A DNA stretch of 63,537 nt, counting the filler, from Atractiella rhizophila (Eukaryota): NCBI GenBank assembly GCA_021432655.1. It is 6 parts of 5 records of this genome, joined end to end, with 100 filler letters (N's around TTAATTAATTAA, not from the genome) between each part and the next. Parts side by side here need not be neighbours in the genome. Positions count along the whole stretch, not along the records: positions 39,395 to 44,480 come from MU271344.1; positions 44,581 to 55,391 come from MU271344.1; 4 more parts are not named here. One strand, given 5' to 3'. The position numbers and the translations under genes were made by a program. Under the pieces are notes generated by a model, which was not told the origin of the DNA, searched no databases, and was given only the letters and a program-made list of their open reading frames with translations. Of the stretch, positions 17,932-62,679 are shown one piece after another; positions within the stretch are counted from its first letter, which is position 1; each line of letters opens with the position of its first letter.

Positions 17932-18031
17932 NNNNNNNNNNNNNNNNNNNNNNNNNNNNNNNNNNNNNNNNNNNNTTAATTAATTAANNNNNNNNNNNNN
18001 NNNNNNNNNNNNNNNNNNNNNNNNNNNNNNN
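17932..18031. other. Assembly gap with artificial TTAATTAATTAA six-frame-stop spacer; same spacer at ~39339, ~44525, ~55436 and ~62313. Plain N gaps at 47786-47820 and 57866-58260
   Basis: Identical N-run/TTAATTAATTAA/N-run structure occurs five times. Confidence 0.97.
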
Positions 18032-38922: not shown

Positions 38923-39994
38923 ACCGTAAAGAAAGGAAGCAAATGATTCGTTGAAGGCATTAATGCGTCCTGTCAGCTAAGAAAAAGTTAGTTTTCTGCA
39001 ACACAGTAGATACTCCAGGACAGGGTATTCTCTCCGTAGCGAAACTATGATGGACGATATCAACAGAGGACGAGAACAACGGACTTGTCTTGGACCCCAA
39101 AACCAACTGGCTTGGTAAGTTAGTTAAGGATTGCGGCACGATACGGTGGAGAAAAGGCCGTCATCAACGCCTAATAGTGAATAACAACGAGTGAGGAGAG
39201 AATCAACATCGCAACATTAGTCGGCGAGAATTCAAATCGCTCTTCCCGCCGTGGGGGTTAAAGCCGTATTGTCCAGACACATAAAGCCTCAAAGNNNNNN
39301 NNNNNNNNNNNNNNNNNNNNNNNNNNNNNNNNNNNNNNTTAATTAATTAANNNNNNNNNNNNNNNNNNNNNNNNNNNNNNNNNNNNNNNNNNNNCTCCGA
39401 AGTCGAACCACGATGCGAGGAAGTCACGTCATTGAGCCGCTGGCAGCTCAAAGGATTGGGGTTGTTAACACTGGTTAACAAGTGCTAAAGATGAAGGGAA
39501 TAATGCAGGAATAATGCGGAAAACATGAGAGAGATGTCCTGAAGACGGCGAAGCTCGACGGTCCGTAGCGCCTGGTAGCTATGATACCTTCTCGTCCCAT
39601 CACATCTGAATGTTATTTGGTTGCGTGGATATTCCAGTTTGAATATAGGCTGAAGAATGTTGTGACAGCAATAGCAATAACGTTGTGCAAAGAGCTGCGC
39701 CGAATCCCCTGGGCTCCCGGCATCCACAGCAGCAGGACTTGGAGCTCAGTTTGTGGACAGGACAAAGGGTACAATTCCTTCCTTTGACCAAATGATCTCG
39801 TGAAGAGACTCTCTTCTGAATGTTGGATATCCTGTATTCGAATTTGGAACACTGCTCCATTGCTTCACCTTCGTTTTTGCGATTCACTCCCAACACGCTA
39901 GATCATCATGTTTCCCTTCTTCCGTTTGTCAAACCGGGATTCAAAATATCTAATACATTCAATCTAAACTGCATCTATCCTCACATGTTCACCC

Positions 39995-42445
39995 TTAAGC
40001 CTGCTGTTCACGCCCTCTCTCGTCTGCATCCTTCTTCTCCTTCTCCACGGCCTTCCTCTTCTTTTCCTCCAACCACAACTTACTCTTCGCCTTCAACTCC
40101 TTTTCATCCTCCCTCCTCAGAGTGACTTCGGCGATGAAAAACAGGGAGACAAAGAAAGAGAGTCCAGCGACGGCTGTGGCGATGAGGAAGATGACGCGGA
40201 ATCCTTGACGATACCCTGCTATCGCTGCCGCCTTCTGTGCAGCTGTGAGAGAGGTGGTTGCATCCTGGATAGACGCTGGGTCGTCGAGGATCGAGGATAT
40301 TAGTTGTTCGGAAAAATTGGCTCCTCGGAGGTGGGAGCGTAGGGAGTTGTTCCTGCCGTCGGATGCACAGAATCAGTTCCATTGGAGGCTGTGTCGTGAG
40401 GGAATACGTTACAGAATCGTGGAGGCTACACAAATGATTAGTGCAAAAACAGCTCAGCGCAAGGAGAATCGTACCAATTGCCAGGCCAATAGTGCCTCCA
40501 AGTTGGCGAATGAAGTTCCTCACAGATGTCACGACTGACATCTCTTTCCGAGGAACCGAAGCTTGAGCAGCAATGAGTGTCGTTTGGAACGTTTGACCTG
40601 CACCTATGCCACTTAGCAAAAGGTATCCCACAGCTTGTCCCGGAGTCGAATGTTCATCCAAAGTCGAAACCAGACCGACTCCAACCGTCCATATCGCCCA
40701 TCCTAACAGGATGTTGACTTTATATCGACCGGTTCGCGAAACAATCAAGCCTGACACGAGACTAGCCACGGCTTGGATGGACATGAGAGGGAGCAAGAGT
40801 AAACCGCTTGTGATTGGAGAATAGCCCCGCAATACTTGGTAGAGTTGAGGGACGAAGAAGAGGGAGGTGTAGAATATGTGGCCGTTGCCTAAAGAGGTTG
40901 CGAGGACACCGGAAATTGTGGCGTTTCGAAAGATTCGGAGAGGGATGATGGGAATGCGAGCTGCCTTCCACTCCCACATCAAGAAAATGGCGAAAATCCC
41001 TATCGAGGCGACCAAGATGCCTAGAACGATGCCAGAATCCCAGGGATATTCCACTCCTCCCCAATTAAGCGACAAGAGCAGGAGAACAGAGCCGCATGTG
41101 ATCAGAATAGATCCGCCATAGTCGATTTTCAGCAATTTCCTCCATGAAAACATACAAGTCAGCGGCAAGAAGTTAGTTGTGTCGTTTTACTTACTCCTTG
41201 AACTCGCCCTTCACGTGCCGCAGAGGAAGCGCAAAGATGACGACCAGTGAAGCTATGATAGACAGAGGCAGGTTGATAAAGAAAGACCATCTAAAAGCGA
41301 TTAAACGATTATTCAAGATTCTGTTCACTGATTCAACTCACCGCCATGTGGCTTTCTCAGCGAGCACTCCTCCAAGTGTCGGCCCAACTCCGCTTCGTCT
41401 CTTGTCAGCCGACGCAATAGGAGGAGTATCCTAAGGCTTACTTTGCGAAAGCAATTGTGACTCCTATAAAGCCCTGATATTTTCCTCGATCTCTCAAGCT
41501 GACAACATCACTGACATCTTGTCAGTCTGATAGCCGCCTTTAAGCAAGAGTACCAACCTAATAATAATCATAGTAAGGGATATAATTCCTAGAGATCCCA
41601 TGATGAGCTAGGTAGTGAAGAGAGAATGAATGCCATCGTTACCTCCACCTCCAATGCCAGCAAAGGCTCGAAAAACGATTAATTGAGTCATCGACTGTGC
41701 AACGCCACAAGCGAGCGTCCAGACAAAAAAATTGGCCAACGAGAACAGCATTACTCTTTTCCGTCCGAATATGTCGCTGAACCGACCGAAGAGAGGTTGA
41801 AAGGAAGTCGATGTCAAAAGGTATGCGGTAGCAACCCAAGTCGACTCTTTGCCCGCTTTGAAGTCTTGGGATATTCGAGGTAAACTCGTGGCGACCTATT
41901 GACAATCATGTCTTAATTGATTCTACAGTTTTTTGAAAGTACCTGTGTCTGGTCCAGCATTGGAAGCACAATGGCGAGTGCGAGACCACAAAAGACCTGC
42001 GACAACGTTCAACACTACTATGAAGCAGTTACCGAAGAATGCGAACAATTATCAAGGCTTTCCGTGGGAGCAAGTTGGTTTGCTCCTGAAGTTGATTATC
42101 ACTATTTCCAATAGGTGGGTCCTTAGTTGATGGCTCGCCAGGGCTGCCTTTCTCGAGATCATCCGCCTGAGAACCTGAAGGTTCTTCTAGGCCGCTTTTG
42201 TTCTCTTCCACATCCTTCCTAATGTCTTCATCAAGACTCTTTTTATCAAACTCTTCTTCTTTCTCGCCGCTTTTCGTATTATTCTCGTCTGTAACGAGAG
42301 TTTTTGCATCGTCTCGATGATAAGACGCCGTGTCAGAATGTCGTTTCGGTTTCGTTTCCAAGTCCTTCCCTCCCAAGGTCGACTCAACCTCAGCTTCGAG
42401 CTGAGAGCCCTTTCTCTTCATCTTCAAAGCCTTCAGAAAACTCAT
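39995..42445 (-). CDS. MFS drug:H+ antiporter, DHA2 family (multi-exon)
   Basis: LTSTSFQPLFGRFSDIFGRK, CGVAQSMTQLIVFRAFAGIGGG, WSFFINLP, LSLNWGGVEYPWDS, VRNFIRQLGGTIGLAIG. Confidence 0.92.
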
Positions 42446-44391: not shown

Positions 44392-47300
44392 TGCGCCTCT
44401 ATGAATGCTCTGATGAATGCTGTGTAACTGTGTGAAAGACGATGTGAACGTAGTCATCAACATGAATATGCATTCTGAAGNNNNNNNNNNNNNNNNNNNN
44501 NNNNNNNNNNNNNNNNNNNNNNNNTTAATTAATTAANNNNNNNNNNNNNNNNNNNNNNNNNNNNNNNNNNNNNNNNNNNNGTCTTTGCAGCGACAGTCGT
44601 CGTTCTCTCTCCTTTTCGATCCCTGGTTCACAAGAGATTCCGGAGATCAGTTTGCTCTCGTATCCTGAAGTCGAAGTCACGCTAAACGGTGCCCTCTACC
44701 ACAGACAATGTCAACTATTCAAAATGGACTACCGATTGTTTTCCCTGTTGTGACAGAACTTGCACGTCAAGAAGCATTCAACCTTCCCAAGCCTCTCCAA
44801 GATGCCCCAATTGAAGATTCTAGCACTAGGACATGTTTATGCCTTTTAGGAGACAGTGGAAAAGTTCTCCGGCTGCCAGTGGCTGCAGTGCGCCATCCAT
44901 GCATGTCAGTGTGATATTGAACCACTGCGGACTGTGCGATGCTCCTTCCTTCCTTATCGGTGAATGGACCTTACAGTACCCAAAAAGGGAATGTCCTTCC
45001 TGATCAGCAAGTAACGACGCGCGTCGACGCGCACATGCGTTGTCGAATTGGACCACACCGCCCTGAAAGAGCAACAACGCCTTCCGACTCTCAAGTTTTG
45101 TGATTTTGTCATTCTTGTACTCCGATCTCCCGCCATTTTGCCTGTTAAGGAAAGGACGGGAGTTGGATGAGTCGTATTGGGAGCAGCAGTTGGATTTAGG
45201 TCTTGACAAGGTGCTCGCGCGCTAAAAGTGAGCGCGATTTATTTACGTTGGAATTGGTTCTTTATTTCTGTGTGAGCCGTTCGCTGTGCTTAATTTCGTC
45301 TGCCCACTTTTTTCACATAACTTTGATCCTGTGAGGACATTCAGTAACTTGTGGTGTGTATCGGAGGCATGGAGACGCTTAAGCTGCGTCAGAGGATTGG
45401 AAATCAATGAGCTTCGTTGGCCGGGTCGATTGATCAAAGCGCCGTTTGCAGGATCAGCTCATTCACAATGCCTCATCTTGGAATCTCAACGATCTCATCC
45501 TTGACGCAAGCTGTCCTAAGGTTTACAGTAGTAGTGCTAGGGCTAAAAGCAATCAATCGCTCTAATTCGAGAGTAAGGACGGCTAATATATCATCTCAAA
45601 AACGCGTCAATTCAGCTCTGCAGGTTTGATGAGGTGATGACCCTGCCTTGATATTTGACCCCGTCATTATATTCCGGAGCGCGTAAAGCCTGCTCCTATA
45701 CGACCTCTGCAGTATTTCCCCAAGCTCAGTCCCTTGACACTGCTTGACGAAATAGGCAGCACGCAAAACGCTAGCGTTCAATCAACGTCTTCACGTCCTA
45801 TTCACAACGCTAACGCTGCTCCTAGTTGTTCCGTTCAAGTCAGCTCTCAGCCCAGGTTTTCGTGGGGAAGTGAAGCATCAACAGACGGCATAGTAATGAT
45901 TTGATTGCAAAGGGGCCGAATGACCCCAATTCCGCTGGTGCCCGTGACGTGTGCTCCCTTTTCTTCAGTTATTATGCGTTCGTCCGTGTCGTTATGCCTA
46001 GACGCGCTGAAGGGGATCGGTTACAGTTACCTCACTTCGATTCTTGGCAAGTTGGTGAGTCCATTGTGTTTGGACCCGTAAGGAATGAAGTGCGTTTTGT
46101 CACGACTTTAGCTCGGCAGGGGAAAAGCTGCGAGGTATTAATGTGGAAGCATTTCAGAAATGAATTGCATTCAGCTTCCGTCATTTCTTGTTCGGGAAAC
46201 AGAGGCTGTCCCTTTATTCCATTTGATTGAGAAAGCAAGCGTGAGGAGGAGGCATCTTGATGAATTTGGATGAATCGGAATGAATCACCTTGAACTCCTC
46301 TGAAGCTGTCTGCCCGGGCTCACTCTATCTAGCTGACCCTCCGACCTGACATCGCGGGATGTTTGGGTCGGCACCGACCTTTATTCCATTTTGGGATCAG
46401 GTATCGTCACTTCAAACAAGGAAAACAGGCTCCAGGGCATAGCTTGTGTTGGGCTTGTGTTGTTTGCCAATCTCAGCGGTGGAAGGACTGCATGAAGGAC
46501 GTTCGAGGAACGTCGACTTGCACACGCGCCACTAATACAGCGAGTTACACCACAAGCACAAGCACAGCACCGGGAAGAGGAAGTCGAGATCCCTTCACGT
46601 GCTCAATTGCAACCACTGCGTGCTCTGTCTTTTTCAATGGAGCTCATTGAAGGTCGATGTGTCTGGTACGTTCATAGTTAGGAAGTTCCCTACCCCATCC
46701 ACTTACCTGTCGAGGGAAAACATACCCTGAAAAGACGTCCGATAATCTCTAGGGCAACACGAACGGGGTCTATCGTGCTAACCACTTTGACGGTTTTAGG
46801 CTCCCGTGCGAGAACTAACCATGTCACTGCTTTCTTCTACCTGTCGTTTCCCTACTGGCTATCGTCTCTCGAGACCCTCTGACGTTCCCCTGCCTCAGCT
46901 TACCAGAAAGCTGAAACACTCGTTCTTACGTCCCGTCGTTCGCTTTCCCCCTTTTGCAGTCAGCTGCCACCCAAAATACCAACGTGTCGATTCTGTCGAA
47001 GCATTAAGCGAGGTCAGAACACGCTATGTAGAGTAGAGACGAGAGATTTACTTCGCTAGCCGCACCTGTCCTACCCGTGAGGCGACTAAAACACGACAAA
47101 GTTCTCGGGAACCTTCAGGCGTACGCCACTCGGCGGTAGGCCGCGCGTAAGCTCGTTGAGTTTGGGTTGGCTTGTTGGCTCCTTCCACGGTTTGTCGAGC
47201 TGAGAACCTTCTCGTTTTAAGTTAAGCTGAGTCACCGAGTTTTACATGACACAACTGTGGTCTTGGAATTGTCGTGGTCTAGGAATTGTGGTATATAATT

Positions 47301-47876
47301 TCAGAGAGTTTTTGCTGAGGTAGGGAATTGTTAAAACCTAAGCGCTAGAGGAGTAGGGTTACGTTTAAAATAGAGATTTGTCATTATCCAAACCAAACAT
47401 TAGAGAACCTCCATAATGACTTTTATTAAAAGAATGATTTGTCACAAAAAGAGTCCTTCATTCACAGTAACGTTAAAAAAAAAAAAACGCGTTTAAGTTC
47501 CCTATACCGTTCGGTTGATAAACGGATTCACAGTCGCGCTGATAGAGTCTAGAGTTGCTTTCCTTCAGTCGAACTCAGTATTAGCCCTTCCTCATGAGGA
47601 GTAAACTCCTCGATATAGAATCACTTCTTCTACATTAAAGGAATGGTTTTATATACTCTCACATCAACTCTGGACAGTACTCCATAAGGCCCGTAAGGCC
47701 ATAGTTATGGTAGTTTTGACCTGTGTTTTAACATGCAACAATTCCTAGATACCATAAAAAAACTCGTATCAACAATTTGATGACCACGGCTGTGTNNNNN
47801 NNNNNNNNNNNNNNNNNNNNTCCAGCCGATAGAGGGGGAGGAACACAAGAGAGGCAGACCAAGAGGAGCAAGAACA

Positions 47877-49912
47877 ATGCAGGCGGATGAAGTTGGCTCT
47901 GGATCGTTGCGGATTGCCTCTGGCTCTGGATCTACCTCCGGGACTAAAGGACGACGACCCTTACCCCTCCCTCCGTCGAGTAATAACATTTCTCCTACCC
48001 TGAACGACCTTTGTCCTTCCACTTCGATAACCATTTCTCCTACCCTAAACGAGCCTTGTCCTTCCACTTCGACCACTAGCTCCATCCGCTCGGTCCGCCC
48101 TCTTCCAACCCCAACCAAAGTAGAAGAAGCGGAGATGCAGGCACCCATCGAATCTCGAACACGTACAATCTCCCTCCCTTCGTCACCCTCACACTCAGAT
48201 TTTCCTCCATCCACATTGCCGTATCTCCGAACTGCAAGTTCGTCGAGATTCGAAGCCATGCCAGAAGCCTCAACTTCCCAGAAGACCATCCTTCCACTTC
48301 GATCACCATTTCTCCTACCCTAAACGAGCCTTGTCCTTCCACTTCGACCACTAGCTCCATCCGCTCGGTCCGCCCTCTTCCAATCCCAACCAAAGTAGAA
48401 GAAGCGGAGATGCAGGCACCCATCGAATCTCGAACACGCACACTCTCCCTCCCTTCGTCACCCTCACACTCAGATTTTCCTCCATCCACATTGCCGTATC
48501 TCCGGGCTGCAAGTTCGTCGAGATTCGAAGCCATGCCAGAAGCCTCGACTTCCCAGAAGACCATCGAACAGACATCTTCCATGCCATCCTCTTCAAGATC
48601 CGTGGTCATGCAGAAGGACCCTCCAGCGAGTCCTCCGACCTTTGCGACAACTTCAAGCAGTCTGCGCTCGAAGACGCACTCTAAGGAAGAAACGCTGATT
48701 CCTTCCTCCGTACGGAGTTCTCAGCCTAGAACAGAAGATCTCATCGGTCCACCTCGATCGACTCCAAGAGAACAAAATCCCCTGAGAGTCAACAGAGACA
48801 AAATAGTAGCTCCTGTCGCCATAAAGCCTTCCGCCTCACAGAAGCAAGTTTCAGCCGCGGGACCGGAGTCGTCAAGCTCTAGCGGGAAGAAGAATTCAGC
48901 CCTCGAAAAGGTTTCGAGGAAAACGATGGAAATTCAGATTGATGTATCACCTGTGACGCCACCTCCATTCTCAGATCTCGTCCCACGACGGCTACTGGAG
49001 CCCCCCCTCTCACTTTCAGTTGACGGTCACGGATCATTGGAGCTGTCTGATCAGCATGTGAAGCCCCTTCGCTCTCCTCCTTCCATGCCACAGCTTCGAC
49101 TTCAGCCTTCGAACCCAGAACCAGGGGATCGCTTTCCTCCAGCAAAGCTGGTGAAGAAGAGCAAAATGAGGGAGATTCTGAGTGCACAAAAGGGTGAGAC
49201 GGGGATGACGGCTGAACGGCGGTCAAAGGATGCAGAGACCGGTCAAGAGTTTTCCAAATCCGATCCTTCTACTGCATCGAAGCGACCACCACCCTTGGTT
49301 TCTCAGGCTTCCCATCTTCTTGCATCCAATTATACGATCGTCAACGAGCCTGAAACTCTTCTTCCACCTTCACCTTACTTTCATGGCTCGATGGGACAAA
49401 GCTCAAAATCTTCATCCTTACCCAGCAGTCCGCTTCCAACACCCAATTCCGTCCATAACGTCAGTAGCTTCAGTTCACCAAAACCTAGTCCCACGTCTCT
49501 GTACCACTTCAATACCCCTTCTCCCACTTTCGCTGCGACCTCTCAAGGGTCTCACGATTCCTCAATGTCGCACCGTAGTCGATGTAGCGCAAACGATTAC
49601 GCAAGACTCGATCCGTCCCGCTATACCTCTTTCCCTCTCATGTCCGCCCCACCTTCCACCACGATGTCTCGCACTCTTCCTCAACAACTCTCCCCGCAAC
49701 CATCTTCAGCAGATCTTCGAAACCCGTCTGCAACTACGAAGAAGCCTCGCTCCTCGTTCGATTCACCCCAAGTGATGTCTACCAAGTCAAACTTGTCAAG
49801 GGAAGAGACACATCGGACCTTCAAACTTCCTCTCTCATCCAACAAACCGCTCCCACCCGATCCTGCCATTCTTTCGCTTCAACGCCAATTCGACGACATC
49901 ATGCACTCATAG
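47877..49912 (+). CDS. Hypothetical Ser/Pro-rich low-complexity protein, frame broken by an internal 275-nt duplication
   Basis: ORFs 47877-48323 and 48410-49912 (500 aa) share the duplicated segment MQAPIESRTRT...EASTSQKTI. Confidence 0.6.
47987..48565. repeat. Nested tandem repeats: 45-nt unit x2 (47987-48076) and 275-nt unit x2 (48014-48290, 48289-48565)
   Basis: Alignment by eye; the 275-nt copies differ by a handful of substitutions. Confidence 0.9.
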
Positions 49913-50316: not shown

Positions 50317-51096
50317 CTACAGTCCCCCGCCACCAATCCTCGCTGCCAATCTTCCCAGACTTCGCTTCGCCAATGCGTACTGCCGCGACCATAGTACCGC
50401 GAGGGCTAGGAAGAAGAATGTGAGGTTCGTGCCCTGTACCATATTTGGGAGCAGAGATGAGTTCCTTTCTGCATTAGCGGGGATAAAATGGAGGATAGTG
50501 AGGAAGAGGGAGGAAACGAGACGCACGACAAACTCCCAATAATCCCTACGCTCCTTTGAGATTGCCCGTAAACAAGGCTCCCAAACCTCCCACGTCTCTT
50601 CCCTTCCTCCCCCTCTCTCTTCTACCTCTCCTCCACGGTCCAATAAGAAAGTTTGGTCGGTTTCTCCCCCGTGCGCTTCCCGCCCACTTCCTTCTCCAGA
50701 ATGCTTCCGTTCCGCCTCCTCCCACTCTTTCCAACTCGGCAGGTGCTCTTTTGAGCCTGAAGAAGAAGAATGAGGAGGAGAGGCGTCGACGTAGGTACAA
50801 CCTAGCAACCGGTGCGCGTGCGTTGCTGGACAGCTGGTTGGAGGGTTCGGAAAGGAGGAGAAGGAGGGAAGGAGGAGGGTGGTGCATTCTAGACAAGCGG
50901 AAAGGGGTCGACACATGTATGGTCTATTCGGATGAGGATGTGGAAGTTGGGCTGCCACGACGGCACTTTCGAGATAACGTTCATCGCTTGAATGTATACT
51001 GGGAGGAGAGACACACCTTTGTAGCGAGAGAGAGACGAGGAACGATACCTTGCCCTTGCCCTTCCCTTTCCTGCTATGTTTGCTTTGGTGGCACAT
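50317..51096 (-). CDS. JTB-like small Cys-containing single-pass membrane protein (start uncertain)
   Basis: Pattern YMCRPLSACLEC...SCPATHAHRLLGC...VWEPCLRAISKERRDYWEFV, then a TM segment and RLAARIG. Family call from recalled pattern. Confidence 0.5.
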   Translation of the reverse strand: MCHQSKHSRKGKGKGKVSFLVSLSLQRCVSPPSIHSSDERYLESAVVAAQLPHPHPNRPYMCRPLSACLECTTLLLPSFSSFPNPPTSCPATHAHRLLGCTYVDASPPHSSSSGSKEHLPSWKEWEEAERKHSGEGSGREAHGGETDQTFLLDRGGEVEERGGGREETWEVWEPCLRAISKERRDYWEFVVRLVSSLFLTILHFIPANAERNSSLLPNMVQGTNLTFFFLALAVLWSRQYALAKRSLGRLAARIGGGGL

Positions 51097-51387
51097 GGCA
51101 GCAGCCAAATTTGAACCAGTCTCTAACCTCTTCTTCCTGGAGTGACGGCCACCTCTTGAGAGCACTAATATAGATTGTGCTCTCCCAACTCGCAAGTTTC
51201 TACTGCCAGCGCAAGTTCTCCTCTCCTTTTTCGCCGTTATTAAATTACCTGCGCTGAAGCGGTCAGCGGTCGGATTCCTTGAAGCTGCAAAGAAGCACAG
51301 ACGCGTCACCACTCAGCAACTCTCAAAAGATTATCCTTCGGGCTTCAGCAGCAAACGTCAGGCCTGCCATATTCAGGAAACAGTACC

Positions 51388-52033
51388 ATGGTATGTTTCT
51401 CCCACAGTAAAGTGAGGAGATGTGCTGATGGCTCCTCATTGGCACAGGGTCCGCCAACTTCCCATCCTCTTCCCCTCCCCAAACCGCCACTCCCAACCCC
51501 TCAACCGGGAGTGAAATATTACTTTCAGAACAAGATTGAGGATTTGAAGTTGGAGATAAATAGGCGGACGAGAGATTTGAGGCGGTTAGAAGCGACAAGG
51601 AATGGTTTAAATGCTAAAGGTACGTTCTACCTCTTCCTCCTTGGGAAGTGGAAAAATGGCGCGGTGTAAAGGAGGAGGAGTATACGTATGCATCATAAGG
51701 CATGCTGCAGACTGTATCACGAATGATGAGGACGCAGCTTGACTAGTTGATACTCGACAAGCTTGATGGCTCCATTGTCCAGTATTCACTCTGAAGCAAC
51801 AAGCCGTCCAAGGACTGCACCTATAAATCTTTGCCCGAATGACTGTTACGCTTTGCTATCGTCTCGCATCCCTCTTCCTAGAATGTCGTTAATTGTTTCT
51901 GGTGTATGAACAGTCCGACTGCTACGCGAAGAGCTCCAACTTCTTCAAGAGCCAGGGTCTTACGTCGGAGAGGTCGTGAAGTTGATGGGAAAGAAGAAGG
52001 TTCTGGTCAAGATCCAACCAGAAGGAAAATACG
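51388..52033 (+). pseudogene. RPT6: Truncated RPT6 copy (first three exons only)
   Basis: M|GPPTSH...[58 protein letters not shown]..., ending at the duplication junction. Confidence 0.8.
51723..51794 (+). ncRNA. Candidate box C/D snoRNA (copy in the truncated RPT6 intron 2)
   Basis: ATGATGA at 51723 and CTGA at 51791; nearly identical to the copy at 53220. Confidence 0.4.
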
Positions 52034-52090
52034 GTCCGTGCTCCCATCCTATCCTCTCCAGTATTCAGCTCATCGCCTGAACGAATTGGA

Positions 52091-52589
52091 CTTCCTCCGC
52101 CTCTCTCTTCTACCTCTCCTCCACGGTCCAATAAGAAAGTTTGGTCGGTTTCTCCCTCGTGCGCTTCCCGCCCACTTCCTTCTCCAGAATGCTTCCGTTC
52201 CGCCTCCTCCCACTCTTTCCAACTCGGAAGGTGCTCTTTTGAGCCTGAAGAAGAAGAATGAGGAGGAGAGGCGTCGACGTAGGTGCAACCTAGCAACCGG
52301 TGCGCGTGCGTTGCTGGACAGCTGGTTGGAGGGTTCGGGAAGGAGGAAAAGGTGGGGAGGAGGGGTGTGGTGCATTCTAGACAGGCGGAAAGGGGTCGAC
52401 ACATGTATGGTCTGTTCGGATGTGGATGTGGAAGTTGGGCTGCCACGACGGCACTTTCGAGATACCGTTCATCGCTTGAATGTAACGGGGAGGAGAGACA
52501 CACCTTTGTAGCGAGAGAGAGACGAGGAATGATACCTTGCCCTTGCCCTTGCCCTTCCCTTTCCTGCTATGTTTGCTTTGGTGGCACAT
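52091..52589 (-). pseudogene. 3'-truncated copy of the JTB-like gene
   Basis: Same peptide as 50317-51096 up to EVEERGGG, then runs into the junction and lacks the TM tail. Confidence 0.7.
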
Positions 52590-52883: not shown

Positions 52884-54680
<1,797 letters not shown>

Positions 54681-55391: not shown

Positions 55392-55491
55392 NNNNNNNNN
55401 NNNNNNNNNNNNNNNNNNNNNNNNNNNNNNNNNNNTTAATTAATTAANNNNNNNNNNNNNNNNNNNNNNNNNNNNNNNNNNNNNNNNNNNN

Positions 55492-61509: not shown

Positions 61510-62348
61510 CAAGAAGGATTCTGAGCTCTTCGACACGACGGAAAGAAAGAGCCACATCCATATTTATATCTATCCAAGCCGTATGTATCAAACCCGTATG
61601 TATGAGATGTGTGACAGGCCGACAATGAGGGACAAGAGGAAGGGACAGTCCGAATTGCCATCAAGGTGTTCGCAGCAAGACAAATCCTGGCTCCTGCGAA
61701 GCAGATGCCAATGCCGGCACGTCACAGGCTCTGAGATTGCAACCATGAGCTTCTGCAGGCTACTGCCAGGACTCGGACGGAAAGGCCCCAACAACTTGAA
61801 TTTAGCCGGCTCACGAGGAGCTCAATCTGGAGGCTTTCGGATCCCTGAGCCTGTCATGATTAGAAAACAAAGTACGACAGCCATCATTATAGGAAGAGAT
61901 AAGATAGAGCGGTAAAGCGAGAAAACCTCTGCTGCACAACGCGAAATCTACCTTCGCAGTAGCACGTGATATGAGAACGACTCGAGATCCCAGACAACGA
62001 GAGTTGAGCCTGTGACGGTTGAGAAATAGGTTACTGTAGCATTCGAAAATGGATATTCGCCCTGCAACTGTGAGTAAAATCTCAGCAGGGGATGAGAACA
62101 CGGTGATGAGTCCCGTAAACAGATCGCAGACTTGCAAGGTAAAACACCTGTCTATCGTGTTGTTGAAGCAGGAAGATGCTCTCCTCTTGCTGCCTCTCAA
62201 GTTATAGCTGATACTGACTCTGTAACTAAGGGATGCAGGTACGTTTCTATGCATTCTCTTTAGTGAGCNNNNNNNNNNNNNNNNNNNNNNNNNNNNNNNN
62301 NNNNNNNNNNNNTTAATTAATTAANNNNNNNNNNNNNNNNNNNNNNNN

Positions 62349-62679
62349 NNNNNNNNNNNNNNNNNNNNTCCATCCCAAATCCAAGCCCAACGTCACCACC
62401 ATCTGCACGGAGGATGGCATCGAGAGCTGCGGATGAAGAAGGTGGATTTTCCTGTGGATTGTGATTGGGAGAAGGATCGAGGTGGATGAGATTATCCAAG
62501 TCGAAATCGAGCTCTGTATTGCCATTAGCGCTCGCACCTGTACCGGATACTCCGCCTAGCGCTCCGACGAGGGTTGAGGAGGAGGAAAAGTCGAATTCAG
62601 TCGCACAGATGTCGAAGATGGTGGAGGTGGTGCTGAAGTCGAGGTCGAGGGAGGGGGAGGGCGAGCGACGACGAGACAT
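62349..62679 (-). CDS. 5' fragment of a hypothetical acidic low-complexity protein running into a gap
   Basis: MSRRRSPSPSLDLDF... stays open to the N-run. Confidence 0.4.

Follow-up and report, generated by a model that had tools for sequence, protein, structure and literature searches.

Why should about a kilobase of DNA beside an assembly gap use short words in a manner that inverts the usage of everything around it? We asked this question of a segment in a 63,537-nucleotide window (the whole stretch of DNA that was analysed, made of six parts joined by filler) from the Atractiella rhizophila assembly GCA_021432655.1, following an earlier note that had described positions 46680-47785 as mirror-written. 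In our analysis, the letters of ~1.1 kb beside the gap almost certainly stand back to front without being complemented, a slip of software and not the organism's DNA. The feature is not biological, and its worth is solely that of a curation or quality flag for the record. The reversed, non-complemented text occupies 46670-47795 (1126 nt, with no strand assigned), as delimited by orientation scores, dinucleotide contrasts, and the letters of loose contig ends. It forms the right end of the piece at 44581-47795 and is bounded on the right by a gap of 25 Ns at 47796-47820 (likewise strandless), the sole gap of that size in the window. The left boundary, 46669/46670, is the point at which read-derived contigs end or cease to fit, and the right boundary, 47795, is the exact edge of the 25-N gap; both boundaries thus fall at assembly joints. 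Compared with the limits first proposed, the segment extends ~10 nt further at each end.

The anomaly is apparent from simple counts, and those made by hand in the earlier note proved correct in the segment and in both control regions. Between 46681 and 47280, TA occurs 29 times versus 14 for AT, and CTA+TAG 18 times versus 7 for GAT+ATC; over 46680-47785, the counts are 75 TA versus 54 AT and six CTAG versus no GATC. In the control at 45901-46500, CTA+TAG numbers 7 versus 17 for GAT+ATC, and in that at 44581-46680 there are 11 GATC versus 7 CTAG. The window as a whole has the bias opposite to that of the segment, with 2442 TA versus 3799 AT and 117 CTAG versus 232 GATC. A surplus of TA over AT, or of CTAG over GATC, is uncommon in natural DNA at large.

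Multiple tests of word orientation bear out the mirror-written character of the segment. First, we ran a Markov orientation check with strand-symmetric models trained on the window minus 46400-47900; the reversed orientation was favoured at every order from 1 to 5, by 26.7, 30.9, 31.0, 23.1, and 7.2 bits, respectively. Second, the backward-minus-forward score of 591 sliding 500-nt windows had a mean of -17.4 (sd 8.2), but the ten highest-scoring windows all started at 46401-47301 and reached values up to +22.0, with the eleventh at +2.0. All six windows wholly inside the segment scored +8.0 to +22.0, compared to a maximum of +2.0 among the 575 windows outside it. In each of the four G+C classes these outside windows averaged between -16 and -19; the score is thus independent of G+C. 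Third, a maximal-segment search, in which every word was scored against its reverse as a log ratio, returned 46659-47730 as the best reversed segment in the window, with a score of 26.6 and a runner-up of 6.25. Fourth, all seven 150-nt tiles of the segment were shifted (z +1.7 to +3.5), as were all three 300-nt tiles, and tiles of both sizes together spanned z +1.7 to +3.9. None of the flanks of the other N runs was clearly shifted (highest z +2.1 for 150 nt and +1.35 for 300 nt, left of 62269), and the 300 nt that follow the 25-N gap gave z +1.7, inside the normal range. Finally, all four reversal-sensitive dinucleotide contrasts were inverted: for AT:TA, GC:CG, CA+TG:AC+GT, and GA+TC:AG+CT, z was -4.3, -2.0, -5.6, and -2.1 by comparison with 47 genuine pieces of equal length, of which 0, 2, 0, and 1 were as extreme. 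As written, moreover, the segment is less host-like than all 93 genuine pieces scored (z -3.6). The short-word bias of the segment is far beyond chance.

Might the segment be foreign or chimeric, a contaminant or a wrongly joined read with word usage that by coincidence runs opposite to the host's? Its position at a contig end beside a gap would suit such an origin, as would the low host-likeness of the text even when read backwards. Each of the eight dinucleotide classes in the segment, however, comes to within 1.7 sd of its opposite class in genuine pieces of the host, which is not expected of unrelated DNA, and loose ends of host contigs agree with the backward reading where the prediction puts them, as we discuss below. 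We therefore consider foreign DNA a very improbable source of this text.

A serious natural rival to reversal is repeat-induced point mutation (RIP). By this account the written text would be genuine DNA, left over from a repeat altered by RIP or a similar C-to-T process, which raises TpA, lowers CpA and TpG, and often leaves its marks at contig ends. Both classical indices resemble those of RIP-affected fungal repeats: TpA/ApT is 1.40 in the segment versus 0.64 in genuine pieces, and (CpA+TpG)/(ApC+GpT) is 0.76 versus 1.23, values that are positive by the usual thresholds. CpA-to-TpA mutation shifts all four contrasts in the same direction as reversal does, assemblies commonly break at repeats beside gaps, and the segment turns A+T-rich in its second half, with a G+C content of 0.38-0.43. 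RIP had initially been discounted on the ground that the first half is not A+T-rich, an argument too weak by itself when the classical indices are positive; other statistics were needed to exclude it.

Several lines of evidence distinguish the segment from RIP. First, AC+GT is in excess (156 versus 122.6 +/- 11.8, z +2.8), whereas a C-to-T process would lower it, and AT is low (55 versus 67.9 +/- 9.4, z -1.4), whereas such a process would raise it; reversal predicts both the excess and the deficit, and the closeness of all eight dinucleotide classes to their opposites, noted above, separates reversal from RIP as well. Second, we used the backward likelihood minus the best RIP likelihood as a statistic for reversal versus RIP, and the segment scored +8.6, a value reached by none of 93 RIP-simulated pieces (mean -21.7, sd 9.0; maximum 4.9 at r = 0.2 and 0.9 at r = 0.3). 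Truly reversed pieces had a mean of 18.6 (sd 8.5, n = 93), and 13 of them scored below the segment. Third, the signal is strongest in the half with normal G+C (the first, at 0.51-0.53). Fourth, the 63.5-kb window contains no second copy, none of the 14 as-written frames of at least 35 amino acids in the segment matched a Pfam family at E <= 0.1, and read-derived contigs depart from the text at 46669. The segment is not RIP, and we accord that origin very little probability.

The direction in which the text was set down can be read from the left junction, where three public sequencing runs were compared with the window. X1 and X2 are two runs of one sample of the same organism, and X3 is a soil metagenome; the share of 251 sampled words present was 0.39, 0.35, and 0.06, respectively, with the flank making up 55% of the query. 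When contigs of these runs were placed on 45300-47795 as written, those of X1 and X2 fit the left flank (45300-46669) and then ended or ran on with other letters. In each of these two runs, one 241-letter contig lay on 46429-46669 with a single differing letter and ended there, which makes 46429-46669 (plus strand) the last stretch of read-supported normal sequence, and two further contigs fit to 46669 and continued past it with letters that differ from the window (median length 26). No joints were reported for contigs placed on 45300-47795. No contig was placed past 46727; depth was 0 in X1, X2, and X3 in all 13 bins from 46728 on, and the 17 flank bins were covered in X1 and X2. This hole is in keeping with reversal, but a lack of cover proves nothing under the rule of the mapping tool, and we do not count it as evidence. 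What is informative is the 27-letter consensus of the loose ends. Compared in register, it matched the backward reading from the gap at 19 of 27 positions (binomial p ~2e-5), versus 5 of 27 for the text as written, 6 of 27 for the in-place complement, and 3 of 27 for the reverse complement. An offset of one base either way reduced the match to the backward reading to 4-7 positions, and the local alignment score of the loose end was reached by none of 2000 shuffles. The original contig probably ended at 46669, and the text read from 47795 to 46670 is probably the true plus strand that follows it.

The loose-end comparison serves to choose between two forms of mirror writing, because complement-only and reverse-only text describe the same duplex and differ solely in which end abuts the flank. 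The earlier note had proposed the first form, a segment complemented in place without reversal, in which case its complement read left to right would be the true plus strand after the flank. Such text has the same mirrored duplex and hence identical orientation statistics, and the complement-only reading does contain the intron-like strings and the open 41-codon frame that had been cited for it. For the letters that run on after 46669, however, the in-place complement accounts for 6 of 27 and the backward reading for 19 of 27. Because these letters match the far end of the segment (47795), they indicate that the string was reversed in place and not complemented in place; we regard complementation without reversal as very improbable.

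Nor are the intron-like and peptide-like cues better than chance. The four intron-like strings stand where they had been placed in the complement-only reading, but donor-like motifs occur at chance level: four in the mirrored and two in the as-written reading, compared to 3.0 +/- 1.6 in 47 genuine pieces and 4.7 +/- 1.9 once those pieces were reversed. Full intron-like patterns were absent from the mirrored and as-written readings alike. The peptide-like text likewise corresponds to a 41-residue frame that is indeed open, but its reading scores like reversed genuine pieces in codon usage. The score, for which 11 long frames from the window served as the training set, peaked at 5.3 for the complement and 6.5 for the reverse (the mirrored strands), and at 4.9 and 8.0 for the two strands of the text as written. 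Genuine 1126-nt pieces had a median of 17.0 and a 10th percentile of 8.7 (n = 247), placing the mirrored readings below 90% of them, and reversed genuine pieces had a similar level to the mirrored segment, with a median of 7.8 (n = 248). The mirrored forms contain 11 and 8 open frames of at least 40 amino acids, compared to 5 and 4 in the as-written forms, a surplus that arises from word usage alone. Neither the as-written nor the backward segment had a match at the DNA or protein level (best E 2.2 and 0.011) in 80 metagenome loci related to the MFS transporter exon at 40104-41186, the best of which was 57% identical to that exon. The mirrored text probably encodes nothing.

The segment seems to be non-coding spacer that lies upstream of a gene with its start at 47877. 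The normal flank at 44581-46669 also has a low top codon-usage score of 6.0, so that the whole 3.2 kb looks like spacer upstream of this gene, and among 20 flank frames searched against Pfam only an AAA ATPase at 53379-54215 matched. The ~3.2 kb without coding signal, at 44581-47795, is an unusually long spacer in an otherwise gene-dense window.

Several observations weigh against reversal and temper the conclusions above. Read backwards, the segment sits at the low end of host-likeness (-1.991 bits/base, z -1.8), with just one of 93 genuine pieces lower. Simulated CpA RIP (r = 0.2) recovers ~20-24 of the ~28-33 bits gained by the backward reading, which surpasses the RIP model by only ~8 bits on likelihood alone (orders 1-3). 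The loose-end match is 19 of 27 (70%) and not 27 of 27, the consensus derives from just two contigs per run with an agreement of 0.67, and X1 and X2, which come from a single sample and possibly from the very source of the assembly, are not independent. With respect to the imperfect match, the consensus letter is alphabetically earlier than the backward-read letter at all eight mismatches (chance 0.07). This pattern fits a consensus in which ties between two unlike contigs were broken alphabetically by the tool, one contig being equal to the backward reading.

Taking this evidence together, we conclude that an extension into the gap, made during assembly finishing, was very probably written reversed but not complemented. 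The primary contig would have stopped at 46669, where the read graph branches in a sample carrying two versions of the locus. A later finishing step would then have lengthened this contig into the gap, and the 1126-nt extension string would have been put down in the wrong direction by plain reversal with no complementing. Twenty-five Ns would have been left behind, making the true order 46669, then 47795 to 46670, and then the remaining gap. Because only the last 1126 nt of the contig are affected, the error points to an extension or gap-filling step and not to a step that orients contigs. The culprit may have been a gap-filling or extension program or script; each new base could have been added at the wrong end of a growing string, for example, or a reverse-complement routine could have done only half its job.

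The left flank itself shows variation. Within the non-coding stretch at 45300-46669, X1 and X2 carry two versions, one at least 99% alike to the window and the other 90-95% alike, with many substitutions and small indels. By likeness to the window, the 21 placed contigs of X1 fall into groups of 10 (at least 99%), 3 (95-99%), and 8 (90-95%). The two versions point to alleles or nuclei that have diverged, or else to a mixed sample. In X3, an identical 198-letter contig (depth 2.9) lies on 45983-46180, and nothing else of the 2.5 kb was covered. A separate search of metagenome contigs for the exact 30-mer at 46638-46667 gave no match.

An error made in silico beside an N-gap was one of two alternatives raised at the outset, and it is the right one. 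The other, an unexplained copying mechanism, has nothing in its support. It would require that the text as written be present in the cell, as a real 1.1-kb mirror copy made by copying a template in parallel rather than antiparallel. Beyond the text itself we find nothing in its favour: a search of the window with 46500-47795 read backwards gave no match at E <= 1e-3, which leaves a real mirror copy with no partner copy there, and read-derived contigs part from the text at the junction. To our knowledge, no polymerase or recombination reaction gives a reversed, non-complemented copy. We consider an event of this kind to be vanishingly improbable. Mirror repeats, which can form H-DNA, are the sole natural symmetry in DNA of the reverse-without-complement type and are alike in that respect. 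In a mirror repeat, a short and typically purine-rich tract precedes a reversed copy of itself on one and the same strand. The segment, by contrast, has no partner copy in the window and is of mixed composition; it is not a mirror repeat.

The nearest known parallel is a simple error of string orientation, here confined to a gap-side extension. Errors in which a sequence in a record is reversed or complemented alone share with the segment its mirrored word statistics and its boundaries on assembly joints, and require no biological mechanism; unlike the segment, they affect a whole record or contig, not just the last 1126 nt. Among the literature matches listed for published accounts of such orientation errors, no title or opening of an abstract dealt with assembly errors. 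PBJelly may leave 25-N gaps after extensions that fail to close. A default minimum gap size of 25 is given for a PBJelly utility in PMC6240028.

The importance of these findings is a matter of data quality. In this public fungal-type assembly, some 1.1 kb cannot be read as it stands: neither reads nor primers nor alignments will work across 46669, and any study of the promoter or spacer that precedes the gene at 47877 will give wrong results. If a finishing script is at fault, other gap-side extensions of the assembly may also be reversed, although the window offers just one 25-N gap. A strand-symmetric score of forward versus backward word usage detects such errors cleanly. Classical RIP indices, by contrast, give a false positive on reversed text, and counts of AC+GT and AT serve to separate the two.

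A second irregularity lies across the same gap. A 275-nt tandem duplication (48014-48288 and 48289-48563, copies 97% identical) begins 193 nt to the right of the 25 Ns. Its period is not a multiple of 3, and the frame that opens with the ATG at 47877 stops after 148 codons; when either copy is omitted, a single open frame of 586 codons runs to a stop at 49912. Most probably the duplication is another fault of assembly, for instance two alleles set one after the other; otherwise it is a genuine duplication that shifts the frame. That it lies just beyond the same gap and breaks a frame suggests the same faulty finishing step.

The remainder of the window resembles fungal nuclear DNA, with interrupted reading frames and Pkinase, MFS_1/TRI12, GIT_SHD, and AAA domains. 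Its N runs comprise ten of 44 (in five linkers), one of 395, and the one of 25. The five linkers are identical 100-nt six-frame-stop separators of the form N44-TTAATTAATTAA-N44, at 17932-18031, 39295-39394, 44481-44580, 55392-55491, and 62269-62368, and frames that run into them are therefore cut artificially. We read the linkers as a sign of a stitched pseudomolecule and of custom scripting after assembly; the header of the stretch, however, describes the 100-letter linkers between parts as filler that is not from the genome. As reported in PMC539331, pseudomolecules of unfinished genomes were built with a separator of Ns around TTAATTAATTAA. The window resembles such pseudomolecules in having five six-frame-stop contig separators, and the separator itself is harmless. 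Finally, stop-to-stop frames at 50502-51173 and 51882-52511, neither with a Pfam family, give near-identical long peptides on both strands, indicating that several hundred nucleotides are repeated ~1.4 kb apart.

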